Assembly (NCBI GenBank): GCA_963733095.1 | Contig: CAVTBV010000012.1 | Span: 224,001-288,000, forward strand | Direction of reading: 5' to 3' | DNA: 64,000 nt | From: Candidatus Bathyarchaeota archaeon | GTDB lineage: Archaea; Thermoproteota; Bathyarchaeia; Bathyarchaeales; Bathycorpusculaceae | Shown here: piece by piece, positions 9,516 to 26,187 of the stretch | Numbering within the stretch: the stretch's first letter is position 1 | Layout of the letters: every line of letters starts with the position of its first letter | Notes under the pieces: generated by a model | Told to the model about the DNA's origin: nothing | The model's input: only the letters and a program-made list of their open reading frames with translations | Database searches by the model: none | Made by a program: the position numbers and the translations under genes

Positions 9516-9570
9516 TGTTCCAGCTTTGGAACAACCCGTTGATTAACTGTTCCCTGAATAGAACTATAAG
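9516..9570 (+). promoter_or_regulatory. Promoter module: TGTTCCA-N4-TGGAACA palindrome followed by CTGTTCCCTGAATAGAACTATAAG (TATA-like)
   Basis: Homologous module at 17312-17365 (-) in front of another PEF-CTERM gene. Confidence 0.6.
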
Positions 9571-9602
9571 TTAACTTCGTTACTAATTATAACAGGAAGT
9601 CC

Positions 9603-10610
9603 TTGACTTTGATGAAAAAACCAACAAGCACTATCCTAATTCTGCTTTCACTTATAATTTTAGGGACTAATTGCCTTGAACCTGTTTGTGCGCAATCAAC
9701 TAAACCCTCAGAACCAAAGTTTTCTATACAATTCCCAAATGACAGCTCAATACAGATAGTTATAGAAAATCAAGCATTCACTAGCAGTAGCTCTGTTAAC
9801 TCAATAGTTTACTATTATAGAGTCAAAGACCATAACTCATACCAATGGATACGAATGGGTGATTATCAGCTTCAATCTGACTCACAAACTACTCTTATCA
9901 CAATACCACCATACCCATGCGACCTTAGAGATTACCTTTTTCGTCCATCCATGAATAATCCTCTTAACAATAGTACTTTGCTCGATTTTCAAGTTCAAGC
10001 AATAACCGGTTACTATGCTATAACTCAAAAGCCAGGCTACATGCCAGGTATTCCACCTGTAGGACCTGGGGATGGTTATACAGAGATTACTTTTAATGAT
10101 ACAGAATCAAGCGACTGGAGCAACCCAATAACTGTTAACATAGTTGACAAAATTACGTTATCACCAAGTCAAATCTCGTCACTTAATCCAACACCCGGTC
10201 CGACTTCGTTCCAGTTTAATGTTTCAGTTGAAGACAAAACCTACCCGGTTATCGCTGATAGCAACTCAACCGTTACTGATTTAACGTTTAATCCTGCCAC
10301 AAAAGAGCTAAACTTCAAAGCAAACGGACAAACTGGAACAACAGGGTACTGCAGGATCACTATCCCAGCTACCCTTGTAGAGGGAGAACTATCAATCTAC
10401 AAAGATGAAACATTACTGGTAAAAGATGCAGATTACACTCAATCTAACGATGGAACAAACAATATTCTACAAATAAACTACAGTCACAGCACTCATAATT
10501 TCAAGATTGTTGGCACACAAGCAATCCCAGAGCTCCCCATCTTAGGAATCTTGCCTTTGTTTGTAATCATGTCCTTGATAACAACCAAAGTTCTAAGGAG
10601 AAGAATGTGA
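9603..10610 (+). CDS. Surface protein with PEF-CTERM-like sorting signal
   Basis: Signal peptide; SSDWS motif; PT linker; C-terminal IPEL + TM + RRR. Confidence 0.75.
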   Translation: MTLMKKPTSTILILLSLIILGTNCLEPVCAQSTKPSEPKFSIQFPNDSSIQIVIENQAFTSSSSVNSIVYYYRVKDHNSYQWIRMGDYQLQSDSQTTLITIPPYPCDLRDYLFRPSMNNPLNNSTLLDFQVQAITGYYAITQKPGYMPGIPPVGPGDGYTEITFNDTESSDWSNPITVNIVDKITLSPSQISSLNPTPGPTSFQFNVSVEDKTYPVIADSNSTVTDLTFNPATKELNFKANGQTGTTGYCRITIPATLVEGELSIYKDETLLVKDADYTQSNDGTNNILQINYSHSTHNFKIVGTQAIPELPILGILPLFVIMSLITTKVLRRRM

Positions 10611-11224
10611 CTAAGATGGACAAAATCAGGAAAGCTTTCACATTATTCCTAATCCTTATTATCGCTATGTTAAGTCTAACCTTCCTAACTGTTAAGGCAG
10701 ATTCAAATCAGCCAATCACTTTCTCTTCGGGACTTACCCTATATTCACCAATAAATACAACATACAATTCTAACGTTGTAGAATGCAACGGTACGTTCAA
10801 TTGGCCAAAGCCTTCCCAAGTCTCCTTAAATTACAGTATTGACGGCGAAGACCAAGGTGCCTTACTTTGGAGCCTTGATGTGAATTCCATTTCTATCCCA
10901 GAATATTCTACGATAGCTGGGTCATTTCAGTTACCCCAACTGCCAAATGGGCCACATCAATTAAGCGTTGGAATTGACGAAGAACTCTATAATAACACTG
11001 GTTCAGCGCACGAATTAATTAACCAAACCACTTGGGTTAATACAGTCTATTTTACAATAAGTGCAAATCAACCCACGCCAACCCCAACTCCTACTGTTCC
11101 AGAACTAACTTATTGCACACTTCCAAGTGTAGTCATTTTTGGAATCATAACCGCATTATCCTTAGTTTTCAAAAAAGTAGGTCATCCTTTTGAAGGTCAA
11201 GATGCGTGCGCCGATGGCGCTTAA
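10607..11224 (+). CDS. Surface protein whose PEF-CTERM tail is interrupted by the integrated element (chimeric C-terminus)
   Basis: Signal peptide, Ig-like domain, PTPTPTVPE then element-derived sequence; native tail found in frame at 25539-25634. Confidence 0.75.
   Translation: MTKMDKIRKAFTLFLILIIAMLSLTFLTVKADSNQPITFSSGLTLYSPINTTYNSNVVECNGTFNWPKPSQVSLNYSIDGEDQGALLWSLDVNSISIPEYSTIAGSFQLPQLPNGPHQLSVGIDEELYNNTGSAHELINQTTWVNTVYFTISANQPTPTPTPTVPELTYCTLPSVVIFGIITALSLVFKKVGHPFEGQDACADGA
11096..11103 (+). repeat. Left 8-bp direct repeat GTTCCAGA (attL core / target duplication)
   Basis: Identical to 25539-25546; joining the two copies restores an intact VPEF-TM-basic tail. Confidence 0.7.
11108..11123 (+). 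repeat. Subterminal repeat ACTTATTGCACACTTC
   Basis: 16/16 identical to 25484-25499; core TTGCACACTT occurs three times at the right end. Confidence 0.8.
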
Positions 11225-11331
11225 AGGGTACCCACGTCTTTTGAGGTAGTTGGCAATTTAAAAGCGGACAAATCACTGCGGTTCTTTAGTTTCCTCAAAA
11301 CTTTTAAATAAGTCAGCCAAGAGTAAGCCGT

Positions 11332-11766
11332 ATGGGTACAATAATAGGTGCAGTTTTTCCTGTTTCTGAGGAGCATGCGAGACGAATATTTGATGAAAAA
11401 CGAAACATTTTTGCGAAATATACAAAGATGATTTGTCTCAGCAAGAAATCAAAAATAGTTTTCTATGTTACTGGAGGTGGCGGCATAATTGGTGAAGGTA
11501 CCGTAGAAAATACAGAGAAGCTTGAACCAGAACTTGCATGGAAAACTTATAGAGAACGACTCTTTCTTGATTTGAATGAATACGAGCAATACACTTTGCT
11601 ATCGCCCATTAGCAAAAGAACGAGGACTTCCCCACAAATCACAATTTTTGTTTTGAATCAAATTAAAAAGTATAAGCAGAGCAGTCGTCCAAACTTTAGC
11701 GTCACACCTTCGGGGAAATATCTTACAAGAGAGGAATATCTTGAAGTTACGAGAACAAAACCCTGA
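11332..11766 (+). CDS. DUF365/ASCH-like PUA-fold protein
   Basis: GAVFPV...KIVFYVTG...IIGEG...LFLD..EY pattern typical of archaeal DUF365. Confidence 0.65.
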   Translation: MGTIIGAVFPVSEEHARRIFDEKRNIFAKYTKMICLSKKSKIVFYVTGGGGIIGEGTVENTEKLEPELAWKTYRERLFLDLNEYEQYTLLSPISKRTRTSPQITIFVLNQIKKYKQSSRPNFSVTPSGKYLTREEYLEVTRTKP

Positions 11767-11780
11767 CTAGTTAGAATGGA

Positions 11781-14700
11781 CTAACCTTCTTCCATTCTCT
11801 TGATAATTTTAGTAGTTTCCAAGCTCACGGTAACTACTTTTTGTATTAATTCAATAACATATCCTTTGTAGTCTTCAAAACTGTAATTGTTGAAGTTTTT
11901 ACGAAGAGTCTCGCTCTTAGGAGTTTTCTCCTTATATTGGTCAAGAATCCATTCAACAGCTGTTCGGTTTCTAATTTTGTAAGCCCAAGTTTGTTTAGGT
12001 ATGCCTTTCAAGGTAGTTATGTCATCTATTGCTATTTCACCCTTATTTCTGTTTGCCAAGAGTCTGGGTTTATTGTTTTGGATATTTTTTGTTTCTTTGT
12101 CAATTCTTTCAAGCGGATAGATAGGGGCGTTTTCAAAATCGATATGAAGGTTAATCAATTGTTGACCCCAATTTTCCCATTTCCAAAAGTCTTTCATAAG
12201 GGGAATTCTTGGCAATTGCCTTTTCAAGTCAGCATCGTATTTTTGACAGTACTTAGGCGAATGAAGAATTGCGTAAACATAATTAAAAATTGAGTCACTA
12301 CTGATTTCATCGTCCTTGTATTGTTCTCTAAAAACTCTTATCGCCCATTCTGTAACGTTCTTGCTCCATTTTTTACCATTGTTAAAGAAATAAGGTACTG
12401 CCTGAGTGTTCTCAACGAGGTCTTTGCTAAAAAGACGATTTGATATAAGCACTGAGAAGGGCGTCGATGAACCAACACCTGAGAAACAAATTACCTTGTT
12501 ATTTCTGTTTAAATCATCCCCGAAAATTTTGTAATGGTTTCTAGTCAGAAAGTCCGATAAATCTTTGTCGGAATAATACAATTTCTTAACATACGGGCGG
12601 TAGTTAAATTCAATTATCGATTTTCCGTCAAAATTAAGGCTAACTCTGCGAGGAATTTTATCCTTAAGCGCTCTGCTCCATTGAATATCATATTTTAGAG
12701 CATTGCCTAAATTCTCTGGTTTAACATCTCTCAATCGTTTGAGTTGCGAATTGTATGATTCTACAAAATATTGAATTTTGTCAGCAATGTTTGACTCGTC
12801 AAAATCAAAAACCCATTCATCCCTATTTGTAGATACTCCAATGGTGTAAAAAGTGAAAATTGACAAGTCATTATCTTTTTCAGGGACTAACGGAAGCAAA
12901 TCATCAAAGTCATTATCCTGAATATTTAGCCAGTTCCCTTTCTTGTCGGGCGTTATATGAACAAACGGAACATTTTCAACTTTATTACTTGCAAACCATC
13001 TCAGCTTCTCTTCCCTTCGCTGCTCATCCTCTAATGCAAAATATTGAATCATGCAAGGTTTTTTTAACGACTCTTTGCGAACAAGAAACATTATAGCAAT
13101 GCCTAATTGTATGCCAAAAACATTATGGACAGTGCCTGACAGTTTTGGGTTTTCACGAATATCACTTTTTGTATCAATGATATATTGCATAATCAAATTC
13201 ATTTGCAATGTGCTTTCTAAAGCCATCATATGTATAGCTATCAATAAATGACCTGTTTGTTATGAAAGCGATAATTCCATTATTGCCAATTCGGTCAGAT
13301 GCCCAACGATAGAACCTTGCATAAGGGTCATAAACTTTAGTTTTCGTTGCTCGGCTGTCTTTGACATAAGTTTCTTTTATTCTTTTATCTATAAACGGGT
13401 ATTTACGGTTTGGATTATTTTCGTTAACCACGGATTGGTTAGCGTTGTAGGGGGGGTTACCTATTATCACTGAAATCTTTTTCTTATTTTGTCTTTTAAT
13501 TCGCTCAATGTTTTCTTCTCCAATATTATACAAGCTCACCTGCTTGTTTTTGAAGTGAAAACCTGTATTGTCAAGCGTATCGACAAAGCAAATATTCTCA
13601 AACGGTTCATATTTTTGAGTTTTTTGCTTATAGGTAAATTCGATATTAAGATTGGCTATATAATAAGGAAGTATTTCAACTTCATTGCAATGAATCTCGT
13701 TTTTATACTTGTATTCTAAAGCCGCTGTTGGTATTTGTTCAATTAATTCAGTGATGAAAGTGCCTGTTCCCGTTGCGGGGTCAAGTATCTCGACGTTGGA
13801 ATCGGATAATACTCTTCCGAAGTGTGTACAGAGAAGGTGGTCTGCAGTCCTAATCATAAACTGCACAATTTCATTAGGCGTGTATATGATGCCTAGGCGG
13901 TCAGCTGCTTTGGGGTTGTATGTCTTGTAAAATAATTCATATAGAAGTTTTAAGAATTTTTGCTTTTCATGATGGTCTTCAATATTTGAAGCTGCTGCCT
14001 TTATCGCAAGGTAGTAATGGTCAATAAGTCCTAAGGTATTTTTCTTTATTTTTCCAAAGAAGAACGTGTCTGAGACTTTTTCGAGTTCTTTGGCTATTGT
14101 GTTTTCTTTGTGAAATTGAGATTCATTAAAAATAGTAATGAAGATTTCTTCTGTGAGAATGTGCTGGATAAGCATTTCCCTAACATCTGAACAAGTGATT
14201 TTTGGATTAATCGTTAGTTGACAGAGTGCAAGCAGGTCATCCCTTGCTTTCTTAAAGACTGGATTCTTTTTCGCTTCAGAGTCAATTAATTCTCTGAGGG
14301 CGTCCAAGATAGGCGGCAAATCTTCTTTGAATTTTTCTATGGCTCTATGGAAGTCGGCAATCTCGGGGCGTTCGTAATCAACAAAGCGTTGGAGAATCTG
14401 GTCTAACTTAGCTGGGTCTTTCATTGAAACGCGATTTCTTTCAAAACCCTGCTGGATTAGTACAATAGTCTGTGAATCTTCGAAGATAATGTTTGAGGTC
14501 GGGTATCCTTTCCCAATCTTCTTTTCAATTTCTTTGTCTAAATCGTCATATTCATCTTTGCTTTCCCAATAGCCTACATCTAAGCGCAATGCATCTTTGA
14601 CTGTTCCATCTGGTGTAACTGTATTTCCTTTTTTTGACTTGTAGTCAATTTCGGGTATCAACAAGAGATTTTTCGATTTGCAGTAATAATTAAGGAGATT

Positions 14701-14820
14701 CGCAAATTCTGAACGCAGAGACATTTCTCTCTTACTGCCGCTATACTGTTTGACCTTATCAACGGCGTTATAATATTCTTCAATTAGATGCATGGTCATC
14801 GGCATCAGACTGCTTGGCAA
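11781..14820 (-). pseudogene. Single-chain restriction-modification enzyme (Type IIG/ISP-like: PD-(D/E)xK nuclease + N6-adenine MTase + target-recognition domain), split by a frameshift near 13185
   Basis: PDG...WESKD, DPATGTGTF, IGNPPY; ORF1 ends EFDYAIYH* while ORF2 frame continues YIIDTKSDIRENPK...HNVFGIQ; removing one A joins them. Confidence 0.8.
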
Positions 14821-14915
14821 TTATGTTGTGTTAGCTTTTAAGCTTTAACTTGAAACCGACTAAGACTTTGGCAAAATTTTTTAAAGAAGTCAACCAATTT
14901 TAGAGACGAATAGCT

Positions 14916-15179
14916 ATGTTGAGTGAAAGAGAAGCAAGATGCCCAGAATGCGGCTCTCCATTGGTTGTTTCAGTTGAGAAAAATAAGCGAACGGGTAAAT
15001 TACAAATAAGATTTTTCTGCGATGGAGATTATGATGATAAGTTCGATTTTGTCATACTTACGGAATTAAAAAACGAGGACTTAGATTCGCTCCTTCGAAA
15101 GAAGGGAAAGGTCGTATCGCAGTCTGTGGGCTTAAAGCTTCTTGATAGAAAAAGCGACCCTGAAATTGAACTGGCTTAA
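14916..15179 (+). CDS. Small Zn-ribbon protein
   Basis: CPECG N-terminal motif; TATA-like TTTTTTAAA upstream. Confidence 0.55.
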   Translation: MLSEREARCPECGSPLVVSVEKNKRTGKLQIRFFCDGDYDDKFDFVILTELKNEDLDSLLRKKGKVVSQSVGLKLLDRKSDPEIELA

Positions 15180-15333
15180 CCCCGCATGGTGACTGATTCG
15201 TCATTGTAGAGTTGCTTTTTTCCCTTTGTTGTCTGAGAGAAGCATATTTGCATTTTCCAGCTTACGGTTGACATTGGCGTTGCAATTAAAGTATTAAATA
15301 GGTAGAACTGTGATACCAGCCTATTAGGTCTGA

Positions 15334-16098
15334 TTGATGAGCGACGCTTCCAGCCCGCTTTCTGTTGTGGGCGTAATTTCAGAACCAGTAAAAGCTTTGA
15401 TTGTTTCAATAAGAAAACACAGGGAAAAGGAGCTTATTCAAAGCAGGTTTGTGAACGCCTTGGAAAGCGAAGCTTCTGCTTACTTAGCGGCAATGAACAA
15501 AATGTCGGCGTATGGAAATGAGCGAATTACGCCTAAGCTCTTGGAAATAAAGTCAATTCCAACAAAGAGACAGATAACTGAGGTAATGATAATGGCATCG
15601 GAAATACCCTTGTTTTGTAAGGAACTCCTGATTGCCTTTATCAATTTAGCAAAGGCGTGTAGCGAAATCTCCGAAAATGAAGCCTTCATGAAATCACTTC
15701 AGCAAATCCCTGAGCAATTCGATTTCATCAAGCGAATGGCAGCCATTTATGTAAAAGACAATACGGCAGCCATAAACGGGGCATACTTTCGTTATTTCAA
15801 AATCTACGGAAAACCAGTCTCAAGTCTCGAGCTATATTCGCAGGAGTCCGCCAAAATCGAAGAAATCAGGAAATCACTGGTCTTAATCAAGAAGTGGGGA
15901 GCGTTGGCAAGGAAAAATAGAGTTCGTCTGAGCAGAAAAATTGGTTTGCGATTCCTTAGGAACTTAGAGACGCTTGGAAAGATAACGGTATGTGTGAAGA
16001 TAGAAGCCTATAGCTATGTTGATTTGAATGATTATTTGCCTCCTGCTCTTGAGCCGCTACTATCTCTCGTTGATGGAATCCGCTATGGAATCAGCTAA
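15334..16098 (+). CDS. Hypothetical protein
   Basis: 254-aa ORF, no recognised motif. Confidence 0.55.
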   Translation: MMSDASSPLSVVGVISEPVKALIVSIRKHREKELIQSRFVNALESEASAYLAAMNKMSAYGNERITPKLLEIKSIPTKRQITEVMIMASEIPLFCKELLIAFINLAKACSEISENEAFMKSLQQIPEQFDFIKRMAAIYVKDNTAAINGAYFRYFKIYGKPVSSLELYSQESAKIEEIRKSLVLIKKWGALARKNRVRLSRKIGLRFLRNLETLGKITVCVKIEAYSYVDLNDYLPPALEPLLSLVDGIRYGIS

Positions 16099-16141
16099 CT
16101 GTCAACAGAGCTATCGTTGGTTTTTCTAAAAGTTGGGTCTG

Positions 16142-16300
16142 GGGATTAAAATTTAATCTTTCTCTCTCTCTCGAACTCAAACTCTACGACTACGACTGAC
16201 TAATTCTTTATCACTAACTAACACACACTCTTTCGTTAGCTCGTTAGTTCGTTCGTTAGTTAGCTCGTTCGCTCGCTAACAGACAAACAGACAAACAAAA
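16142..16300 (+). repeat. Left terminal inverted repeat (~155 bp)
   Basis: 16142-16171 matches reverse complement of 21900-21929 at 29/30; 16206-16230 is a perfect 25-bp inverted copy of 21817-21841. Confidence 0.92.
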
Positions 16301-16308
16301 GAAACTTG

Positions 16309-17274
16309 TCAACGAGTTTTTCTCTTGAAAATTGAGACTGCTAATGTCAATACCGCCATTATGATTGCTATGACAATGATGAAAGGAAACTCTGGAACTG
16401 AAGAAATAGGTGTTGGCAAAGGTGTTGACGTAAAAATAGATGCTTGACTCATTTGAGGAAAATGGTCTATGTTAGTCCCGTTTATAACGTAAGGTGTGTT
16501 TCCTATTCCCGAACTATCAACCATAGTAGCATTAGGGTATTTTGATTGGTAGTCACTCCAATAGTTGCCAACCTTGCCGTTATCCCAAGTGTTAACAGAA
16601 TCCGAATCGACTTCTGCTCCATGGTCATTGTTTATGAAGTTATTATCATAGATAGAGTTGCTTGAAGAAGTTTCTAAAATAATCCCTGCACTATAATAGC
16701 CCCAACCATTCGAATTGTCGGTTAAGTAGTTCTGAACAATCGAGTTATGATGGCTTTCTGACAGTAATATGCCAAACATACCACTCTTAATAGTATTCCT
16801 GACAATCGTTACTGAACTGCTATTCTCAATCAAAATTCCACCGATCATTCCAAAGGGCGTGACGGCACTTGTTATAGTTGTATTTGTAATTTCTATATCA
16901 GATGTATCATTTAAGACAATAATAATTGACCCTGTGTTTGTAATTGATAAGTTTTGAACTGTAACGTTTGTCACTGAAAGCATGGAAATCTGTCCGTTAG
17001 TAAGAATATGACTGTCACCGTCAATTATTATGTTACTTTTTTGAACTGTAAATACAGTTGTGTCCATGTCACTTGTGAAAGTATAGATGTTACCTGTTTG
17101 CTTAATTAGAGGTGTTGAGGGACTTACGTTTCCATCTGCATTTATTATAAAAAAGCTTTGAGTTTGAGCGTTTGTAGGTTTAACTACCAGCAAGGTCAAA
17201 CATGATGTAGCGATAATGAGAATTAGGAATAATACGAAAGTCTGGCTGATTCTACTCTTGCTTATTTTTTGCAT
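16309..17274 (-). CDS. NosD/CASH right-handed beta-helix surface protein with PEF-CTERM tail
   Basis: Signal peptide, parallel beta-helix repeats, NTWDNGKVGNYWSDY motif, SVPEFPF-TM-KRKTR. Confidence 0.85.
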   Translation of the reverse strand: MQKISKSRISQTFVLFLILIIATSCLTLLVVKPTNAQTQSFFIINADGNVSPSTPLIKQTGNIYTFTSDMDTTVFTVQKSNIIIDGDSHILTNGQISMLSVTNVTVQNLSITNTGSIIIVLNDTSDIEITNTTITSAVTPFGMIGGILIENSSSVTIVRNTIKSGMFGILLSESHHNSIVQNYLTDNSNGWGYYSAGIILETSSSNSIYDNNFINNDHGAEVDSDSVNTWDNGKVGNYWSDYQSKYPNATMVDSSGIGNTPYVINGTNIDHFPQMSQASIFTSTPLPTPISSVPEFPFIIVIAIIMAVLTLAVSIFKRKTR

Positions 17275-17311
17275 TGTCTACCTTCATCTAAACAATTAAC
17301 AGAGGCAACGG

Positions 17312-17365
17312 CTTATAGTTCTATTCAAAGAACAGACAAATAGTGGTTTGTTCCAAAATGGAACA
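17312..17365 (-). promoter_or_regulatory. Promoter module with TGTTCCA-N3-TGGAACA palindrome and TGAATAGAACTATAAG
   Basis: Homologous to 9516-9570. Confidence 0.6.
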
Positions 17366-17387
17366 GTCTTACAACAAAGTTTCTTGA

Positions 17388-18446
17388 CTAACTCGACTTA
17401 TATTGGATTTGACTGATTATTCTTGGTACCCATTCTTTCTTTTCGTTTCTCAGATACTTCGCAAACGACAGAGCCTCTTCGCTAATCAACGTATCAATCG
17501 TTTGTCTTTTTCCAACTTTAATTCGTTCAACGTTAACCATTCGGTCAAACAAGGCGTTCAAATCTTCAGCTAAACTGTCAGTCTCATACTCTTTCAAGTG
17601 AATTTTCTTACCCATCTTGAGGTGCATCATGAAATCTGTGACAAGAACAAAGTCTTTCTTTCTGAGTTTTTGACAGCGTTCAATCAGGAAGCCATCAATC
17701 AGATAGCGGTAGAGTTCTTGGAAATCGCATACTAAACTTGGTTTACCATGTTGGACGGAATGCAAGAATCCTAAATACGGTTCTAATTTTGCTTTCAATA
17801 ATGCTTTGTGTACTCTGCACTCTAAAACGTAATAGGCAAAGTTGAAAACATTATTCAATCCATCATAAGCCTTGTATGTTTCTCTGCTTTCAGGTCTAAT
17901 GCTTTCAGGGAAAAGTTGGAAAATCTTCGAGAAATAATCTTGTGCGCTTCTTCCTTCAATTCCTGTGAGTTTTTGCCTTGTCTGTTTCAAATTAGAAAAT
18001 TCCAATCTTGTAATTTCGCTTAGGTAAAACGAGTTTTTAGAATAGTCGAGTCCATACTTTTTTAGAACAGCGATTTCTCCTTTGATTTTGGCAATGACAA
18101 ACTGTTTAGCTATGTCGATGCATTTTTCTTCATCAAGAACTGCTTGATATTGGCTTAGTCTTGTTTCAACGTGAGAATCATCTTCAACATTTTTGAGCAA
18201 GGCTACAACTCGGTTTCTTCTTGTCACTATGTATGTGTCGATATTCCAGAGTGCAAGATCAACCAACGCGTCAACGCTGACGTAGGAACCGCTTTTGAGG
18301 ACAGCTTCGCCTATTTCCTTTTTGAAATGTGGGTAGCGTTCTGTTTTTCCAGTTTTTTCTCTAACTTCAAAACATCCTTCAGCTCTACCAAGATAAGAAC
18401 CATAGTTTGATAGTTCAACCTTCAAAGTTTTAGAACCCTGAACCAT
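17388..18446 (-). CDS. cas1: Solo Cas1 endonuclease/integrase (putative casposase)
   Basis: YGSYLG N-terminus; catalytic E in LTGIEG, N..FNFAY, H in EPYLGFLH, acidic residues in SLVCDFQELYR; no obvious C-terminal HTH. Confidence 0.93.
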   Translation of the reverse strand: MVQGSKTLKVELSNYGSYLGRAEGCFEVREKTGKTERYPHFKKEIGEAVLKSGSYVSVDALVDLALWNIDTYIVTRRNRVVALLKNVEDDSHVETRLSQYQAVLDEEKCIDIAKQFVIAKIKGEIAVLKKYGLDYSKNSFYLSEITRLEFSNLKQTRQKLTGIEGRSAQDYFSKIFQLFPESIRPESRETYKAYDGLNNVFNFAYYVLECRVHKALLKAKLEPYLGFLHSVQHGKPSLVCDFQELYRYLIDGFLIERCQKLRKKDFVLVTDFMMHLKMGKKIHLKEYETDSLAEDLNALFDRMVNVERIKVGKRQTIDTLISEEALSFAKYLRNEKKEWVPRIISQIQYKSS

Positions 18447-19102
18447 TAAGCATTCCTCTTTTCTACTTCTTTTATAAACCTGTTAAGAATATTCACATAT
18501 CTGCTAGAGTTTTCTCTTTCTGCAATGAACTGCTTTCTAAGGTTTCTTAGCATGCCAACTTGTGACTGTCCAACATATTTTTCTTTTAATTTGGTAGCCT
18601 TTGCTTTAAGCACTGATTCTTTTTGAGTACTCTGTTTTTTTATTTGCTCAAGAAGAGCTTCTGCGAATGAGATATTGAATATTCTGTTAAAGTAATTTTC
18701 ATCGAAGAATTTTGTGTTAATCTTATGCCTCATTCTTAAGAGTGTATCCGCAAAAATAATATCGATATGAGTTTCTGACAAAAATGAAGGAGGCAAATCT
18801 TCGTAACCTTTGCTTAACTCTTTTTCCATCGCCTTGATTAATTCGTCCTTTTGCAGGTCTCCGTCAATTATGAGAATCGCTAATCCTTTAGCTGATAATT
18901 CAGGTTTAGCGGTTCCTCTTGCATCTTGTTGCCCATTCTTTCTGGCACCACATCGCGACTTCAAGATGCCCTCTTTTTGCATTTTTTTTATGTGACGATA
19001 AACAGTTGCATAATTTGTCCCATTCAATGATTTTTCTAGGCTATACATGCTTTTTTTAGAGCTTAGAAGCGAAATGAGGATTTCTTTATCGATTCTATTC
19101 AT
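18446..19102 (-). CDS. Winged-helix (ArsR-like) DNA-binding protein translationally coupled to cas1
   Basis: EILISL...SMYSLEK...YATVYRHIKKMQKEGIL; TAATG stop/start overlap with cas1. Confidence 0.75.
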   Translation of the reverse strand: MNRIDKEILISLLSSKKSMYSLEKSLNGTNYATVYRHIKKMQKEGILKSRCGARKNGQQDARGTAKPELSAKGLAILIIDGDLQKDELIKAMEKELSKGYEDLPPSFLSETHIDIIFADTLLRMRHKINTKFFDENYFNRIFNISFAEALLEQIKKQSTQKESVLKAKATKLKEKYVGQSQVGMLRNLRKQFIAERENSSRYVNILNRFIKEVEKRNA

Positions 19103-19115
19103 TTTTTACGCCTTT

Positions 19116-19179
19116 TTGAATATATTCAATTCACGACATGAATATATTCATAAGATGTATATATGCTTTGTTACAAAGC
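19116..19179. promoter_or_regulatory. Operator-like palindromes in the divergent promoter
   Basis: TTGAATATATTCAA (19116-19129), ATGAATATATTCAT (19138-19151), GCTTTGTTACAAAGC (19165-19179). Confidence 0.65.
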
Positions 19180-19196
19180 TAAGTCTGTGAAAAAAC

Positions 19197-19343
19197 ATGA
19201 AAACAATCCATCAAACCTTCACAGATGAAGAGTTCGAAAAGTTACATTCTGCGAAGGGACAAAAAAGTTGGCATGACTTCGTTATGAAGTTAGCCAAAAC
19301 AAAATACAATAGTTTTTTGCCTAAAAAGGAGAATAAAAAATGA
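19197..19343 (+). CDS. Small ribbon-helix-helix-like protein (48 aa, below ORF-track cut-off)
   Basis: MKTIHQTFTDEEFEKLHSAKGQKSWHDFVMKL; ATGA overlap with next gene. Confidence 0.6.
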   Translation: MKTIHQTFTDEEFEKLHSAKGQKSWHDFVMKLAKTKYNSFLPKKENKK

Positions 19344-19720
19344 ATGAATACAGAAAACGCTCGGGTTCAACACTAAGGGAATACAACATTAACGTTGTTG
19401 TGGAAAAACTGAGACATGGCATGAACGAAACTGACGTATTAAATGAATTAGCAATGGCGTTCTGTCCCGATACAAGAATAGATTATTTGAACACAGCAAA
19501 AGAAAAATTGAAAATGGAAACTCAAAACTCGACCAAATCTGAATCCCCTAACAATATGGAACCTGAATCATCTGAATCATTCATGGAATACGCTAAGAAG
19601 CATCCGCACACAACAAGCACATGTAAAAATTGCGGTAAACCTACGCCTGAAAATACAACTTTCTGCTCTAAAGCATGCGTAGAACAATACAAAGCTAAAG
19701 CGGAGACTGACAAAACATGA
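19340..19720 (+). CDS. Hypothetical protein with C-terminal Zn finger (DUF2116-like)
   Basis: CKNCGKPTPENTTFCSKAC. Confidence 0.65.
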   Translation: MNEYRKRSGSTLREYNINVVVEKLRHGMNETDVLNELAMAFCPDTRIDYLNTAKEKLKMETQNSTKSESPNNMEPESSESFMEYAKKHPHTTSTCKNCGKPTPENTTFCSKACVEQYKAKAETDKT

Positions 19721-20301
19721 CGGTGTATTCAAGTTTACCCAAAATAGGAATTATAGATTTCTTAGCTAATATGAGCAAAAAGAGGTTCAATTTCAGAGTT
19801 ACAACAAGCCGTTTTACATTCTTTGCAATGTTAAGCAGAAGCCAAAAAATAGAAGGCATGACAAGCAGAGTTTACGACGAAAACGGAAAACCAACTAACA
19901 AACATTATGTATTTTTTGATATTGAAGGTATATCTTTAGAAGAAGCTAAAAAAAAACTTAAAAAAATTCAAAAAAAATACGGCTTAAGCAATATTTACTT
20001 AACAACAGACAACAACGGCAAAACTTATCGAGGATGGTGCTGGAGCATTGTTACTTTTTCAACTTACCGTAAAATTCTCATTGACAGCGAGAACATTATA
20101 GACAATGGGTTTGATTTTTACACAAATAAAAGGAAAGAAGCCACTTTGAGACTTAGCCAAAAAGAAGGCAGACCTTTCCAAACTTGTACCGATGTTATTG
20201 AATCGTTTTTTGTTCCCTTTCCAACTGGGAAGATACGACGAATTATCTACTATACTGGATGCGAAAAGAAAGGTACAACACTTAATTTAGGAGTTGATTA
20301 G
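19717..20301 (+). CDS. Putative minimal archaeo-eukaryotic primase (AEP)-like protein
   Basis: hhhDhE motif VFFDIE; motif-II-like IYLTTDNNGKTYRGW (His position is Arg); IID; TLRL. Confidence 0.45.
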   Translation: MTVYSSLPKIGIIDFLANMSKKRFNFRVTTSRFTFFAMLSRSQKIEGMTSRVYDENGKPTNKHYVFFDIEGISLEEAKKKLKKIQKKYGLSNIYLTTDNNGKTYRGWCWSIVTFSTYRKILIDSENIIDNGFDFYTNKRKEATLRLSQKEGRPFQTCTDVIESFFVPFPTGKIRRIIYYTGCEKKGTTLNLGVD

Positions 20302-20710
20302 TACGGATAAATTTCCTGAGGCTTTTAGACGATTCAAGCAAGATGTTCCTACACGACAAATTAAGACTTTTAGACAGCTAACTTTAGCTTTCGGTTCTTG
20401 GGCTGGTGAAAAATGGAGAGGCACAAACAGACAGATGGATGCTTTGGCTGTTCAAGCAAAAAGATTAGGGATTCCACTTGAGGATTGCCGTATGAAACGG
20501 CAACAGGTTAGAGCTATATTTTGTAGGGCTTCGCGACAGACTGGAATTCAAGGGAGAGAGAAGTTTTCAAGAAGTTATAGTAATTTTCACCAGTGGCAAA
20601 GCAAGACTGCAAGAACAACAGCATACGAGAGAAGAATCATTAATTACATTAGGAATCATCCGAATGCAAGTTTAGCGGAGGCGCGAGGTCATAGAGCAAA
20701 GAGGTCTTAA
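20294..20710 (+). CDS. Highly basic hypothetical protein (possible DNA-binding)
   Basis: Arg/Lys-rich; C-terminal YERRI...HPNASLAEARGH; overlaps previous gene. Confidence 0.6.
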   Translation: MISTDKFPEAFRRFKQDVPTRQIKTFRQLTLAFGSWAGEKWRGTNRQMDALAVQAKRLGIPLEDCRMKRQQVRAIFCRASRQTGIQGREKFSRSYSNFHQWQSKTARTTAYERRIINYIRNHPNASLAEARGHRAKRS

Positions 20711-20764
20711 CAAGACCTCAATTTTTTTTGTGCAATATTTGGTCATCACAATTAGCAAAACTAT

Positions 20765-21715
20765 TTGTATTTTTGCTGTTCATACATCAATAACATGGTT
20801 GAATTAAGAAACGATATCTTCATTAATTTAAAGGATAACACAAGGCAAACAACTATTGAAAAATATTATGTTGATGAAGCATTCGAAGCAATGGGACACT
20901 TATTTGACAACAAGGACAAATTCGTTGATTACCTGAACTCCATCAAGAACCCTGCTGATGCAGAGCTATTTGTCAGGATGAGTTCGTTTTACTTAATCGC
21001 TAAGAAATATGAAAAGTCTATTCCCGCTAAACTGATTATGATTATTTCTATTATTGAGAGAATATCTAACAAAAACAGAGATTTCATTACAATGGATAAT
21101 TGGATAATTAATCAAGATAATAAAATTAGAGAGTATCTTTCTAAGTACGAAGAAGTTAGCATGGAGCAGTTCAAAGAAGTTTTTGAATTGCTCAGGGAAG
21201 ATTACTTTAAAATTTTTGGTTCTCAAAGAAATTTTTTCGCCTTTTTTAAGACGGTTTCTTTAGATGACAAGATTAAAATCATAAAATCTTTTAAGACTCA
21301 AAGAGTAAAAATTGTTGAAGGCGTTTTTGCTAAGTATTTTGAGGAACGGCTTAAACCATTTACAACGATAGATGAATTTGAAATTGCAGAAAAAAGAAAA
21401 CTTAAGCATGCACAAATGCCAGAATGTTACCACTGGAAATCATGTTATCTTGGCTATGGTCAGTGTTCTGATAAAATTAGTTGTTGGTTACATGATAATC
21501 CTGATGAGGTGGACTCGTATCTTAAGAAAACTATCAGATTAATTTATCAGATGAGAAGTAATTTTGTCCATAATGCTAAGTTATTCCTCTTGAATGAAAA
21601 AGACTCAATTTTTCTCGCCGATAGTATTGATGGTGATACCGTTTTTATAGAACTTACCGTAGAAGATTTTCAGGATATTTTCGAGAGAACATTTAAAAAG
21701 TATTTCCATACCTAA
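20765..21715 (+). CDS. HEPN-domain protein (ApeA-like, putative defence RNase); start probably ATG 20795
   Basis: LIMIISIIE helix and RxxxxH motif MRSNFVH. Confidence 0.65.
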   Translation: MYFCCSYINNMVELRNDIFINLKDNTRQTTIEKYYVDEAFEAMGHLFDNKDKFVDYLNSIKNPADAELFVRMSSFYLIAKKYEKSIPAKLIMIISIIERISNKNRDFITMDNWIINQDNKIREYLSKYEEVSMEQFKEVFELLREDYFKIFGSQRNFFAFFKTVSLDDKIKIIKSFKTQRVKIVEGVFAKYFEERLKPFTTIDEFEIAEKRKLKHAQMPECYHWKSCYLGYGQCSDKISCWLHDNPDEVDSYLKKTIRLIYQMRSNFVHNAKLFLLNEKDSIFLADSIDGDTVFIELTVEDFQDIFERTFKKYFHT

Positions 21716-21737
21716 TGCCAACCGCAACAAATCCCAT

Positions 21738-21929
21738 CTTTCTGTCTGTTTGTTGTCCGAGCGAGCTAACGAGCTAACTAAAGCGAGCTAACGAACGAAT
21801 GAGCTAACTAACGAGCGAGTGTGTGTTAGTTAGTGATAAAGGTCGTAATGGTAAGGTAGTCAGTCGTAGCGTGGTCGTCGCAGTCGTAGTTTGAGAAGTA
21901 GAGAGAGAGAAAGATTAAAATTTAATCCC
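21738..21929 (-). repeat. Right terminal inverted repeat (~190 bp)
   Basis: Inverted copy of 16142-16300 with the same module order but different repeat counts. Confidence 0.92.
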
Positions 21930-21974
21930 ATCAAATCTATCGTAATTTTTGCGACCATCTTTTCAGCTATTACG

Positions 21975-22700
21975 TCACCTATCGCCTAACTCGAAAGCGT
22001 CAAATCCATTAGAGTTCCCCCAATCAACTCTATTAGCTCCGTGAAAAGTGCGTCGAGCATTTCCAACATTATTCCTTGCTTTCTCAGCTTCTACCTCTAT
22101 CAGCATCCTCTCTTTAAGAGCATCAGTCCTAATTCGTTCCCTTTCTCTGAGTTTTGCAAGTTCATCATTTTTCACCAACCTTGCAGGTTTTTCACTTACT
22201 TTTACTGGTTCATTTTGGGCTTGAGTTTTCCCTTTGAAAAAGCGTTGCGTCTCACAATTAGCGTAAATTGTAGGTTGAGCTTGGAAACAAGTCTCGCATG
22301 CTTTAGGATTATAAAGTCCTTTACTTCGTGGACAGAGGGGAATCTTGGTTTTTTGAGGAAGTTTCCATAAATGAATTTTACATTTATTACACTCTTCCTT
22401 AGCTACCAACAAACGATGCCGCCCATAAGATTCATAAACGCAATACAACTTTTTGTTTGAACCACAAAGGAGAAATTCGCAATCTGATTGAGAGTTTTCC
22501 TGTTTTTCATCATCTTGAGGAATCCCTCGATAGCGGTTGAAAATAACGTGTAAGCCCTCTTTTCGACTCATAAGAGAGTTTTCCTTAATAACTTGGTCAA
22601 GAAGTTCAAAATCGCTCGGATAAATGTCTGAGTTGAGTTTTACCGCTTTTTCGTTACCCATTTTTTTCACCTCAAAAAAAAGAAATGGGTTATTAGGCAA
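21975..22700 (-). CDS. Cys-rich hypothetical protein, third gene of the RHH-integrase operon
   Basis: Several CxxC/C pairs and coiled-coil-like C-terminus; directly follows the integrase. Confidence 0.55.
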   Translation of the reverse strand: MPNNPFLFFEVKKMGNEKAVKLNSDIYPSDFELLDQVIKENSLMSRKEGLHVIFNRYRGIPQDDEKQENSQSDCEFLLCGSNKKLYCVYESYGRHRLLVAKEECNKCKIHLWKLPQKTKIPLCPRSKGLYNPKACETCFQAQPTIYANCETQRFFKGKTQAQNEPVKVSEKPARLVKNDELAKLRERERIRTDALKERMLIEVEAEKARNNVGNARRTFHGANRVDWGNSNGFDAFELGDR

Positions 22701-24234
22701 CCTCAGCCATTACGGCTTCTTCTTGCGCGATTACTTTAAGGTCTACAGCTGTTTTGCTTTGGCTTATTAGCTCGTTGTATCGCTTCGCGTATAGAGGGTT
22801 CACAAATCGATGTATCCAATCCTTCCATGGTTCAAAAGTTTTTTCGCCTAAGATTACTGAGCGAAGTTTGTCACCTAAAGTTCCATGGTAGAAGTCGCGA
22901 ATTGTTGTGGGGTCTGTTCCGCATTGCTCTGCACAGTCGTCTAAGCTCAAGCCATGAAGCCCTGCAAGGCTTACGAAAGTGTGTTTCATTGTTGTGTGTG
23001 TTGTTGTCATTTTTCCCTCGGTTAGCCATTGTTTCTTATAACCCTGTGTCCCTTTCAGGTTGTTGCTTACGGCTTTTAATCGATAGACATGCCCATTAGC
23101 TGAGACTTTTTCTCCTTTTGCAAGTTCCTGTCCCTTCTGCGCCGTCTTAAAGCGCCAGATTCCCGCTCGATAACCCGCGGCTTTGATACTACTGCTATAG
23201 CTCTCATAGTTGTGACTGTCTGATTCCCATCGTTTGAACCAAGCGCCCTTGATGTCAAAGTCGTCTACGTATCTTTTGAAAAATGCCATAGTTTCAGCAA
23301 CGAAGTATCGTTTCACTTTGCCGCCTATCTTGGATTCCTCGACTTTTGGCTCAAACATCGCTATTGCGTTTAAATCCCAAAAGGGTTGGCAAAGATAGCC
23401 GTTTGGCGTTTTTTTACCCATATACAGTTGACTGCTAATTCTACCGCCGCCTTCAAAACCGAGCCTATGAAGAACTAGTGTGTCTACCTCGTTGATGTTT
23501 TCAACAAAGAGTTTGAGTTCGTTTTCTTGGAGGTAGTCGTCTTTTTTTCCGCCAATGTTTTTCTTTCCTGATGTATCCCACTCATCGCCCTCAAGGAACT
23601 GGAAATGTCTTTTTGATAGTGGTGAGTCTTCTATTTGCAATGCCACAAATTGCATTATGCATCTTAGTTTTGATAACGGGTCGAATTTGATTTTTCCCTG
23701 CTCGTTGTAGAAGTGCGCGTCTTTTTTGGCTTCCTGAAAATCTTCTAAGGAAAATAGTGCGGGGTCTTTTTGATTGAATTTTGCATAAAGGTATTTTCCC
23801 ATTGCCTCGACCATTTTGCCTTGGTCTGACCATTCGCCTGTTATGCGGTTTTGGTAGTGTTTCGCCAAGTATCGGTGACATAGTGTTTTGTTGTATTCGG
23901 AGACTTTGGCGTTTGCAAGGGTTTTGGAGTTTGTTGGAGAGCCGTTTGGAAAATCCTCATAGATTAGGTACAGGAAGCTTCTTTTTGAGATGTTAAGGTA
24001 GTCTGCGTATTGCATACCGTTCTTTATGGTTACTTCAATGTCATGATGGAGTGGGCTTTGGTGGAATTCACCGCGAATTATTCCTTTAAAGGGTTTTAGT
24101 TTCCATGGGTTTGTTTTTGGGTTTGCTGGTTCTGGTTTATCTTTGATTAAGTGCTGAAACAATCGGTTGATATCGGCGTCTGTTGTTATTTCGCCTCGCC
24201 TTTGTTTTGGCGAAGCGAGTATTCTATTGCTCAA
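22693..24234 (-). CDS. Divergent tyrosine recombinase/integrase (513 aa)
   Basis: DYLQENEL, GFEGGGRISS (box I Arg), EPK (Lys), HTTMKHTF (HxxR-like), GLSLDDCAEQCGTD..TIRDFY (Tyr). Confidence 0.65.
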   Translation of the reverse strand: MSNRILASPKQRRGEITTDADINRLFQHLIKDKPEPANPKTNPWKLKPFKGIIRGEFHQSPLHHDIEVTIKNGMQYADYLNISKRSFLYLIYEDFPNGSPTNSKTLANAKVSEYNKTLCHRYLAKHYQNRITGEWSDQGKMVEAMGKYLYAKFNQKDPALFSLEDFQEAKKDAHFYNEQGKIKFDPLSKLRCIMQFVALQIEDSPLSKRHFQFLEGDEWDTSGKKNIGGKKDDYLQENELKLFVENINEVDTLVLHRLGFEGGGRISSQLYMGKKTPNGYLCQPFWDLNAIAMFEPKVEESKIGGKVKRYFVAETMAFFKRYVDDFDIKGAWFKRWESDSHNYESYSSSIKAAGYRAGIWRFKTAQKGQELAKGEKVSANGHVYRLKAVSNNLKGTQGYKKQWLTEGKMTTTHTTMKHTFVSLAGLHGLSLDDCAEQCGTDPTTIRDFYHGTLGDKLRSVILGEKTFEPWKDWIHRFVNPLYAKRYNELISQSKTAVDLKVIAQEEAVMAEVA

Positions 24235-24277
24235 AGTTATTACTTTCTGAGGAATTGGATAGTGAAATAAGCCTCTA

Positions 24278-24952
24278 CTAAAACAGGCTTACGGCACTTT
24301 TGCTATCCAATTCAGCCGCATTCGAGCTGTCCTCGGTTTTGGCTGACTCCGAATTTGTTGAGGTTGGGGTAGGGAAGACAGCGGGTCTTTGTTCCCTCAA
24401 CTTGGCGAGTGCATCTGCACCAATTTTTGAAGCTAAGTAAGCTATTTGAAGAGGTGTTTGAACTGCCCGCATCTCATTGGCAATGGTGTATTCATTATAG
24501 CCTTTAGCGGTACGTGCTTTCTCAAGAATCCTATCAACTTCTTGGATTGCTTTTGATGGCTCAGTCAATTCTAATGCTTCGAATGTTCTGCGTCTATCCG
24601 CGTCGTCTTTCAGTTTTTGCCACATGTAGGTTACTTGGTAGGCGCTGTATCCACCAGCTTTATTGCCGAGCATGGTTTTCACAGTTGTCAAGTCTCTTTC
24701 AAAAAGGTAATTGCTCGTCGCTTGTATCATCCTATCAATGTCTGACGTGTTTCTGTATTTTGTAAGCAGGTCGGCTATTGATTCATCTATTAAAGAGGTC
24801 ATAGTGACCGTCCTCTCGTTTGAAAGTTCTGAGAGGCTGTCAAGATTTAGTTTTAGAAGGTTAACGCTAGTTTTTTCACGTTTGCCTTCAATGCTTTTAA
24901 TGTCGGATATTATATTAGCCATATTTTGCCCGACCAAGCGGTATGATAACAA
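24278..24952 (-). CDS. Protein with N-terminal ribbon-helix-helix domain; start probably ATG 24922
   Basis: REKTSVNL..L..L..LS.ER.VTMTSLIDESIADLLTKY RHH pattern. Confidence 0.6.
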   Translation of the reverse strand: MLSYRLVGQNMANIISDIKSIEGKREKTSVNLLKLNLDSLSELSNERTVTMTSLIDESIADLLTKYRNTSDIDRMIQATSNYLFERDLTTVKTMLGNKAGGYSAYQVTYMWQKLKDDADRRRTFEALELTEPSKAIQEVDRILEKARTAKGYNEYTIANEMRAVQTPLQIAYLASKIGADALAKLREQRPAVFPTPTSTNSESAKTEDSSNAAELDSKSAVSLF

Positions 24953-24999
24953 AAAATACCTTATAAGTTTTGTGTTTTACTCAGAAATTAGCATTTTTA

Positions 25000-25147
25000 T
25001 TGTAATAATTACAAAATTATTGTAATTTCTGAAATTTTTATCATTTCCCCTCACCACTAAAAATTAAAAAAGGGGTCATATTATTGTAATTTTTTCAAAG
25101 GCGTAGCAAACGGTTTATCACTAGTCCACTTTTTTTTGATTTGTAAT
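25000..25147. promoter_or_regulatory. Iterated TTGTAAT sites upstream of the RHH-integrase operon
   Basis: Palindrome TTGTAATAATTACAA 25000-25014 plus copies at 25020, 25084 and 25141; TATA-like CTTATAAG at 24960-24967. Confidence 0.45.
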
Positions 25148-25402
25148 CGAGAAATAAATTTAGTGCAAAAAGTAACCTCGTTTGAGTTAGTTACTGACAA
25201 GACAATTAATTACTTGCCATTTTTCACAATTATTCACAGGCACTCCTATGGAAAAAACCAGAACGAGTTGAAAACGGGTAAAAAATAAATCCCAATTCAC
25301 CGCCTTAACTGTGTTTGCCCTGAGAAATAAGCCGTTTACAGTAAAAGCACTAAAATTAACTTTCTTGCTGGTTTTCGCATGGTGACACTGAGACCGTGCA
25401 AT

Positions 25403-25511
25403 TAACACCATAAATCCATACTGAATAACACCATCAATAACACCATAAAATAGCAGTTAATCGGTTGTTGCACACTTCACCATACTTATTGCACACTTCT
25501 ATTGCACACTT
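25403..25511 (+). repeat. Right-end subterminal repeats: 3x TAACACCAT and 3x TTGCACACTT
   Basis: TAACACCAT at 25403, 25426, 25438; TTGCACACTT at 25468, 25489, 25502. Confidence 0.8.
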
Positions 25512-25538
25512 TCCCATGCTTTCACGGCTTTATTGCAA

Positions 25539-25634
25539 GTTCCAGAGTTTTCGTCGTTAGCAATTTTCCCCTTGCTTGCCTCTATGCTCTTGGTTGCAAT
25601 GGCAACAAGACGATTCAAGCGCATATCAACTTAG
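25539..25634 (+). pseudogene. Displaced native PEF-CTERM tail of gene 10607 (starts with right direct repeat GTTCCAGA 25539-25546)
   Basis: Translates VPEFSSLAIFPLLASMLLVAMATRRFKRIST* with no upstream gene body; in frame with 10607 when joined at GTTCCAGA. Confidence 0.8.
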
Positions 25635-26187
25635 TTTTAAACCGAGCAAGAGTAACCACAATAAATCCTAGATTTTTGGCTCGAGCCACTGCATGCTTTT
25701 GAACGTGTCTGCCTATCTTCATCTCGACACTATACTGCCATTGTTGGTCCTTCACCAAACACTAAGCCTGGGACAGTGGTACTTGCAAGAATGGTCCGTG
25801 TCTGCCCTCGGTGTTTCCTTATGGTTCCAGCTGGTGACTACGGTAATTTGGAGTCGGTGGAGAAGTTGTTGTTGTTGCTGCTGCTGCAACTGCATTCTGC
25901 ACATGGGTTGCAACAACTACTCTTTCAAAGTTAAACTCCCTAAGCAGATTGACGAGCAGATTGACTCAGAAGTCTTTCAGATGGCGTGTTAATGTTGCTG
26001 TTTATTGTTTTGAATTGTTGAAGATTTGGCAACTTTATCCTTAGGTAGAACAAGGTGGTCATGAAAAAATTTGAACAAAAAAGAAGATTTTGGCTCAATT
26101 GATATTTATAGTCTGCAAACCATACTTGTGGCTGAGTTTTCCAGACGGGGAAAAGCATGACAGATCAGACAGCGGTGGAGACAGACA

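Follow-up and report, generated by a model that had tools for sequence, protein, structure and literature searches.

Introduction

Site-specific integrases as a rule need a single conserved site in each genome, which is mostly a tRNA gene, and some phages and genomic islands rebuild the 3′ end of that tRNA gene on integration. Phages 21 and e14 reportedly integrate into the icd gene of E. coli. Other mobile DNA lands on sequences present in many copies: IS1397 and ISKpn1 target repetitive extragenic palindromic (REP) sequences, and integron cassettes enter attC or attI. Here we describe a 14,443-bp element (positions 11104-25546) in a 64,000-nucleotide stretch, hereafter the window, of contig CAVTBV010000012.1 from Candidatus Bathyarchaeota archaeon (assembly GCA_963733095.1). 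We consider it likely (about 85%) that this element belongs to a Bathyarchaeia-specific integrative family that uses the codons of a protein-sorting motif as its landing site. Like the icd phages and the tRNA-rebuilding islands, it brings a replacement 3′ end with which the gene product is complete; in those systems, however, what is supplied is a copy of one specific gene's native 3′ sequence, whereas here it would be a generic tail of unrelated sequence, suited to any target. With IS1397, ISKpn1 and integron cassettes it shares the use of a dispersed, multi-copy sequence as landing site but, unlike their non-coding targets, the repeat in our case would be kept by selection on a protein-sorting signal.

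Among archaeal elements, a survey of Thaumarchaeota placed 39 of 68 integrated elements in tRNA genes, 15 in intergenic regions and 14 in the 3′-distal parts of protein-coding genes, and in the portion of the survey consulted every listed protein target is a single gene (PMC6563490). A review of archaeal tyrosine recombinases, in its accessible sections, lists similar protein-gene cases, none of them tested (PMC8371274), and the accessible part of a paper on Bathyarchaeia viruses mentions integrases and no sorting-codon target (PMC10848311). In the literature on sorting signals or Bathyarchaeia together with integrases we found no integration into sorting codons; the supplementary target tables of the Thaumarchaeota survey might hold a comparable case. 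The closest described systems are the pNOB8-type archaeal elements, which, as far as these sources describe them, share with the window element a tyrosine-recombinase fold, short direct-repeat attachment (att) sites attL and attR, an unsplit integrase gene, insertion at the 3′ end of a protein-coding gene, an element-borne stop codon and the possibility of tandem insertion (PMC6563490, PMC8371274). The targets published in those portions are single-copy housekeeping or regulator genes, whereas the motif used here is common to many unrelated surface-protein genes; the window family also differs in having no Pfam match, a Lys at the position of the second catalytic Arg, and a substitute anchor in about half of its members. 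The system is of a known kind in that a tyrosine recombinase would integrate it site-specifically; its targeting of sorting codons, by a recombinase family without a Pfam model, is not described in the papers searched.

Results

Boundaries, empty site and native form of the interrupted gene

A first-pass annotation, made from the sequence of the window, had proposed that two copies of GTTCCAGA, at 11096-11103 and 25539-25546, flank 14.4 kb of inserted DNA. A sequence search confirmed both copies (attL and attR cores, forward strand), which bound an insert of low G+C content (0.33-0.43 over 11-26 kb vs 0.40-0.48 in the flanks). We also recovered the 16-nt repeat expected just inside both ends: ACTTATTGCACACTTC lies at 11108, 4 nt inside the left GTTCCAGA, and at 25484, 39 nt inside the right copy, and these are its only two positions in the 2.84-Mb, 16-contig genome. 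Its kernel, the 8-nt TTGCACAC, is found in three direct copies inside the right end and one inside the left end. The 16-nt repeat was also considered as the true boundary and was rejected, since by our reading a join there yields no sorting-type tail. There are 163 copies of GTTCCAGA in the genome, so the 8-nt repeat by itself carries little weight, and the call of an insert rests instead on the unique 16-mer, the restored reading frame and the empty-site contig described below. No tRNA genes were found in the 64-kb window.

Joining position 11095 to 25539 by script reproduced the predicted 194-aa in-frame protein, which ends in ...PTPTPTVPEFSSLAIFPLLASMLLVAMATRRFKRIST with its stop codon at 25632-25634 and whose tail consists of VPEF, a hydrophobic stretch and a basic cluster. 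The 5′ part of the interrupted surface-protein gene (10607-11103, forward strand) was delimited from its open reading frame (ORF), an orthologue and the joined frame; it comprises a signal peptide, a domain and a Thr/Pro linker and runs up to VPE, for which the attL core supplies the Val-Pro-Glu codons. The orphan 3′ part (25539-25634, forward strand), identified by translation and from the joined frame, reads VPEFSSLAIFPLLASMLLVAMATRRFKRIST followed by the stop. The empty site itself was found among contigs of three public runs (X1-X3) that we compared with positions 9500-27000; the runs come from one study and have words in common with the left junction. A 189-nt contig of run X2, a freshwater sediment metagenome, joins 11095 to 25539 at a depth of 3.4, with 85 and 104 matching letters on its two sides, no mismatches, and the 8 letters of the core shared. 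Other contigs of X1 and X2 are identical to the window at 10817-10967, 16817-17128 and 26751-26994; judging from these identities, the same or a very close strain is present in both runs at about 2-4x. None of the X1-X3 contigs listed spans attL or attR, which at this cover is uninformative.

The search for an intact gene in relatives pointed in the same direction. The closest orthologue of gene 10607 (75% identity over residues 36-164) is in a genome of the same genus, G016, and ends natively in ...PTPTPTVPEFNSAALILVMATGVIAVTFVHLKSKRKAYL, that is, PTPTPTVPEF, a membrane helix and KSKRK. It follows that VPELTYCTL, the sequence now read across the left junction, was not the original end of gene 10607.

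Junctions of related elements share a core that usually lies in sorting-motif codons

To compare target sites we used 12 homologue loci in species-representative genomes and 26 in metagenome contigs, most of them short. The integrase-proximal junction could be located at 10 of the 12 genome loci, at two of the 26 metagenome loci (L028 and L031) and in the window, 13 in all; no junction was located at the other two genome loci, L021 and L013, the contig of the latter ending 1.4 kb upstream. On the integrase-proximal side the elements share an arm of ~140 nt with TTGCACAC repeats, whose identity from element to element is 77-86% and whose similarity does not extend beyond the core. In the window this att arm occupies 25396-25538 (forward strand; 77-86% DNA identity in 10 loci) and carries TTGCACAC at 25468, 25489 and 25502 and TTATTGCA at 25530. 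The core TCCAGA is present at all 13 junctions (as TCTGGA in L014 and L015), and in the 11 elements for which both ends were found it forms a direct repeat of 6-8 nt without exception: 6 nt in L011 and L022, 7 nt in L012, L014, L015 and L017, and 8 nt in the window, L018, L019, L020 and L028. The related elements measure 6.0-8.8 kb; of the 14,443 bp of the window element, 5,788 bp belong to a nested element. L014 and L015 combine co-linear arms with an inversion of the two middle bases of the core, and both elements lie the other way round in their targets, the outcome expected of an overlap-directed tyrosine recombinase.

The first-pass annotation had suggested testing whether the ends of homologous elements fall in VPE(F/L) codons, and many of them do. 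A canonical tail, split between a Thr/Pro-rich linker ending in VPE and an F that leads into a membrane helix and a basic cluster, was found at the window, L012 (whose target has a frameshift further upstream), L017, L019 and L022; at L011 and L031 the orphan tail, PEF or PEL, is confined to the integrase-proximal side, and the integrase of L031 is only 49% identical. An orphan PE[FL] tail with helix and basic cluster thus follows the core at 7 of 13 junctions, and 9 of 13 lie in VPEF or VPDF codons if one counts L014 and L015, where the element is in reverse orientation, opposite to its target gene. By comparison, a crude census of the element's own genome gave 639 occurrences of TTCCAGA, of which 13 (2%) are in sorting-type tails; at that rate the binomial probability of at least 7 tail junctions in 13 is about 2e-9. 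The host-side consensus is T-TCCAGA-R-TTT, or xTT CCA GAR TTT in codons, with TTT (a Phe codon) right after the core in 6 of 9 forward attB sites. The claim that the sorting motif serves as a multi-copy attB is thus supported by those nine junctions but not by the other four, which lack the context. Since these four lie outside any PEF context, it is the DNA word that is required and not the protein motif, and our data support as the recognized unit the word (G)TTCCAGA(R)(TTT), usually, not always, in the VPEF codons of a sorting tail.

The genes used as targets are diverse. In a comparison of seven target proteins the only homologous pair was L017/L022, so different genes are targeted, at least five of them unrelated; the targets of L012 and L015 are NosD-like beta-helix proteins. 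One metagenome-assembled genome (MAG) carries two copies, L011 and L017, on different contigs and at different sites. We also observed that the left flank of L020 and the right flank of L016 look like arms belonging to a different element of this family, which suggests tandem insertion into the att site of a resident element.

The host genome encodes 33 sorting-type tails, 21 of them [VI]PE[FL] (again by crude census), and a sole gene of the exosortase/archaeosortase family (TIGR04178, 55 bits vs a cut-off of 23), which scores best against the thaumarchaeosortase and archaeosortase C (ArtC) models, below their cut-offs. Many secreted proteins carry the motif, a membrane helix and a basic cluster at their extreme C-terminus, and a sortase gene is present, and on these grounds we regard the tails as PEF-CTERM-like by architecture, though not as members by the curated model.

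A predicted tyrosine recombinase and its neighbors

The protein at 22693-24234 (reverse strand, 513 aa), annotated initially as the integrase of a ribbon-helix-helix (RHH)-integrase operon at the right end, gave no match in Pfam, PHROGs, NCBIfam or the PDB when searched as a single sequence; useful information came solely from the family profile and the fold search. Its homologues form 55 clusters, and the available source names are all Bathyarchaeota or Bathyarchaeia; just one distant homologue, P0048 (33% identity), has a precomputed match to PF00589. Across 28 aligned sequences R265, K297, H413, K417, H418 and Y449 are invariant, and the sHtvmKHtfvS...Y block of the family profile aligns with the catalytic HxLRH...Y block of the integrase 3nkh (E 0.03). 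An AlphaFold2 model built on the family alignment reached a mean predicted local distance difference test (pLDDT) score of 84.3, and a Foldseek search of the PDB with this model returned tyrosine recombinases at the top (XerA E 4e-4; probability 1.00 for the top 7). Matches 1-12, and most others with E < 1, are XerA, IntI, an S. aureus integrase, Tn1549 Int, Cre and lambda Int; both the core-binding and the catalytic domain are matched, with template modeling (TM) scores, normalized to the target, of 0.47-0.56. According to the model, then, the 513-aa protein has the fold of a divergent tyrosine recombinase and would presumably act as one. Its ORF is intact, 1.3 kb from the junction; because the gene survives integration, the element is not of the suicidal SSV type and its att site is not inside the integrase gene.

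Directly upstream lies a gene for a 224-aa protein (24278-24952, reverse strand), a putative regulator or directionality factor whose homologues adjoin the integrase in 7 loci. The integrase half of the proposed operon thus held up, but the RHH half is weak, as the only lead is a match to RHH_3 (E 0.0086) below the Pfam cut-off. On the other side, a 241-aa Cys-rich protein (21975-22700, reverse strand), whose N-terminal part is conserved in 10 related loci, overlaps the stop codon of the integrase. An alignment search of 401 Bathyarchaeia genomes detected the integrase in three, its own genome counted. Neither the integrase nor the 194-aa ORF at 19717-20301 has a relative among IMG/VR viral contigs, a result that does not exclude a viral nature.

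Substitute tails at the left junction

We then considered what becomes of the interrupted protein, using the 13 forward left junctions (window, L006, L011, L012, L013, L017, L018, L019, L020, L022, L028, L029 and L058). In the window, hydropathy and translation delimit an element-encoded, in-frame substitute tail, LTYCTLPSVVIFGIITALSLVFKKVGHPF..., at 11104-11224 (forward strand); it contains the 16-nt arm repeat (11108-11123), reaches a maximum 15-aa hydropathy of 2.56 and is followed by KK. Its YCTL is the translation of the arm repeat TATTGCACACTT, common to the element family. At 7 of the 13 junctions the frame runs from PE into 33-66 aa of element-encoded sequence that includes a strongly hydrophobic segment and, after it, KK or RR; the hydrophobic segments of these seven tails, in four sequence versions, have maximum 15-aa hydropathies of 2.5-3.1. 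Of the remaining junctions, five stop after 8-17 aa and one continues without a hydrophobic segment. The version found in the window is also fused to an unrelated 295-aa protein in genome G020 (L006), and it stands at a solitary left end in G023 (L058), where the 17 kb behind it contain no integrase or other element gene. Part of the family therefore seems to carry a generic replacement anchor, with a putative anchoring function.

Cargo genes and a nested Cas1 element

Besides the integrase, only the 224-aa protein (7 loci) and the N-terminal part of the 241-aa protein (10 loci) recur across the family, and in a whole-element DNA comparison with related loci nothing matched apart from the integrase, the att arm and two small genes. 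The cargo of the window element begins with a DUF365 protein (11332-11766, forward strand; PF04033, E 5.5e-10). It is followed by a Type ISP-like methyltransferase/specificity enzyme (11781-14820, reverse strand; Pfam ISP_coupler, N6_Mtase, Eco57I and Type_ISP_C, the last at E 1e-81) encoded by two ORFs, 13174-14820 and 11781-13244, which overlap at 13174-13244 in different frames and provide coupler, methyltransferase and specificity domains; unlike full Type ISP enzymes, it has no nuclease or helicase domain by Pfam. At 14916-16098 (forward strand), Pfam and locus comparison identified an 87-aa zinc-ribbon protein, also present in L014, L015 and L029, together with a 254-aa ORF.

The rest of the insert includes a second element, absent from the first-pass annotation. 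An inverted-repeat search and reading of the ends delimited 5,788 bp (16142-21929) between inverted terminal repeats of ~170-200 nt (16142-16310 vs 21727-21929; arms of 60 nt at 85% and 42 nt at 88% complementarity) with the terminal palindrome GATTAAAATTTAATC. Given the little DNA common to the related loci, its empty site is not definable. It encodes a Cas1 homologue (17388-18446, reverse strand; Cas_Cas1 E 1.3e-47, TIGR00287) that is a candidate casposase and whose best solved relative is 6opm_A (E 4e-20), the casposase of Methanosarcina mazei. Elsewhere the genome encodes another Cas1, of a more typical kind. The element also carries a NosD/beta-helix surface protein (16309-17274, reverse strand; Pfam Beta_helix and NosD) with its own VPEF tail, and the additional GTTCCAGA announced for the VPEF codons of this gene is indeed there, at 16391 on the minus strand. 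The leader sequences of this gene and of the interrupted gene, which lie on opposite strands, are alike: the signal-peptide regions 10624-10695 and 17180-17251 are 74% complementary over 72 nt. Further ORFs at 18446-21715, with weak leads from Pfam, encode proteins of 218 aa (weak helix-turn-helix), 126 aa (Zn-ribbon), 194 aa, 138 aa and 316 aa. The 194-aa ORF (19717-20301) represents a conserved family of 43 clusters, mostly from small metagenome contigs; its weak leads are an ESM Atlas score of 0.95 to an archaeo-eukaryotic primase (AEP)-like cluster and, from a model with pLDDT 62.6, Foldseek matches to LigD polymerase/primase at E 0.055 or worse.

Full-length homologues of the nested Cas1 (51% and 48% identity) are found in genome G016, likewise in repeat-bounded units, of 5.3 and 8.5 kb (L053 9266-14577 and L054 8099-16593); GATTAAAATTTAATC is common to the ends of all three elements, and the repeats of the 8.5-kb unit extend over 305 nt with 99% complementarity. 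We noted that the 5.3-kb element sits between two inverted copies of a B12-binding radical S-adenosylmethionine (SAM) gene, of which 158-nt arms (L053 5675-5832 vs 16082-16239) are 97% complementary. Casposons are described as units that combine Cas1 and PolB and have inverted repeats and ~15-bp duplications (PMC9939771). The nested element is similar to them in its Cas1, in the long inverted repeats at its termini and in having relatives that share its terminal motif. Unlike casposons, however, none of the three Cas1 elements (window, L053, L054) encodes PolB or any other polymerase family by Pfam, none shows a direct repeat of about 14-15 bp in its flanks that would indicate a target-site duplication, and all are small, at 5.3-8.5 kb. 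From their sequence they resemble casposons but fail two of the defining features. Only C-terminal fragments of this Cas1 (~residues 200-345, 67-86% identity) occur in G001, G013, G022, G040, G042, G045 and others, and the element's own genome holds a matching one at 12649-12750 of locus L023 (G000:C2:46000-65999). There, within positions 7497-16305, a cluster of three VPEFSWL-tail genes precedes 60 nt that match the terminal repeat of the Cas1 element, the Cas1 remnant and a canonical tyrosine integrase (15082-16305), an arrangement that looks like a second, decayed mobile region beside sorting-tail genes.

Discussion

We propose that the element works as a unit of the divergent tyrosine recombinase (22693-24234), its small upstream partner and an att site made up of the core (T)TCCAGA(R), the ~140-nt integrase-proximal arm with three TTGCACAC and one repeat on the other arm. 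Strand exchange would take place within the 6-8 nt of the core, which are identical in element and chromosome, and the arm repeats and the 224-aa protein would presumably have a part in it. The attB would be a GTTCCAGAGTTT-containing site, and the chromosomal word would be the codons xTT-CCA-GAR(-TTT) of the [V/I]-P-E-F motif that starts archaeosortase-type C-terminal tails. Many surface-protein genes per genome carry this codon string, which would give the element many dispensable landing sites, and because about half of the elements carry an in-frame hydrophobic and basic tail, the interrupted protein would keep a membrane anchor.

Several observations weigh against this reading. All loci come from MAGs or metagenome contigs, and their junctions were classed by eye and with simple scripts. 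The DNA at L016, L018 (intergenic), L020 and L028 has no PEF-type coding context; the VPEF of L015 is no C-terminal tail but comes right after a signal peptide, and in L014 a VPDF is followed by a short hydrophobic end with a run of N beside the junction. The sorting-tail enrichment could reflect selection after insertion instead of recognition. As to the signal, the PEF-CTERM model TIGR03024 (cut-off 23 bits) has no match on the window tails, and a paralogue with a VPEFSWL tail scores only 13.9 bits (E 0.049); of the PEF-CTERM-like tail announced by the first-pass annotation, the architecture was upheld but the model's cut-off was not reached. As to the enzyme, the 513-aa protein matches no Pfam family at E≤0.01, PF00589 (Phage_integrase) included, and the profile pairs its KHT with RHS of 3nkh, which puts a Lys at the expected second catalytic Arg, the catalytic roles of the remaining invariant residues being assigned by position only. 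Finally, the study behind X2 may share its origin with the sample behind the genome assembly, so that the contig shows that the joined form exists but is no independent habitat record, and no circular junction was found in runs X1-X3, which at a cover of ~2-4x is uninformative either way.

The enrichment just mentioned has a rival explanation, according to which the recombinase reads TTCCAGA and little else, anywhere, without favoring GTTCCAGAGTTT-type sites, and the bias toward sorting codons is survivorship: insertions there would be nearly harmless, more so with a substitute tail, and others would be lost. Such an enzyme would account for a host-side consensus that is merely T-TCCAGA-R-TTT, for the four junctions of 13 without PEF context and for the use of a word that occurs 639 times in the genome. 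It fits less well with the TTT in 6 of 9 forward attB sites, which extends the match to the Phe codon, and with substitute tails at 7 of 13 left junctions, which suggest long adaptation to this coding context. We regard survivorship as a less likely but serious candidate for the origin of the bias, and the two explanations differ in that origin alone, the outcome being equal.

The boundaries themselves could be read otherwise. Eight nucleotides is a typical length for a target-site duplication, and a Cas1 gene lies inside the insert, so the repeat might have been produced by a transposase or by the inner Cas1 and not be an att core at all. This is very improbable: duplications vary from copy to copy, whereas here one word bounds 11 of 11 elements and is part of the conserved arm; the repeats at the outer ends are direct, not inverted; and the Cas1 is confined to its own 5.8-kb repeat-bounded unit and absent from the other 10 complete elements. 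The ORF as found, of 205 aa, has in turn a plausible hydrophobic and KK tail of its own, as it would if gene 10607 natively ended in VPELTYCTL... and the downstream PEF tail were a relic of another gene, the whole being a one-off insertion or an assembly chimera. The mismatch-free empty-site contig, the native VPEF tail of the G016 orthologue and the family-wide origin of YCTL in the translated arm repeat leave this with hardly any credibility.

Extending our preferred reading of sorting-motif codons as the landing site, we tentatively suggest, at somewhat less than even odds, that the window shows a lineage specialized on sorting-motif DNA that has a generic anchor and a Cas1 transposon without PolB aboard. 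Selection on the protein signal would fix the attB word across dozens of genes and species, and the many neutral sites would permit several co-resident or tandem copies. The interrupted surface protein would stay on the cell with its mode of anchoring altered. The Cas1 transposon may replicate via the small primase-polymerase-like protein, in which case it would be a new relative of casposons.

Little is known of the Bathyarchaeia mobilome, and tools that detect elements in this group by their integrases miss the family, because it lacks a Pfam model. The nested element matters for the reach of Cas1-based transposition beyond the classical Cas1-PolB casposons, and the integrase offers an example from nature of a recombinase whose core is defined and very short. 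From the substitute tails it seems that mobile elements are able to change how archaeal surface proteins are anchored. Above all, the family appears to escape the limit of one site per genome by means of a word that selection at the protein level repeats in dispensable places, and such targeting of sorting codons would explain both the multiple and tandem copies and the transfer between divergent hosts.

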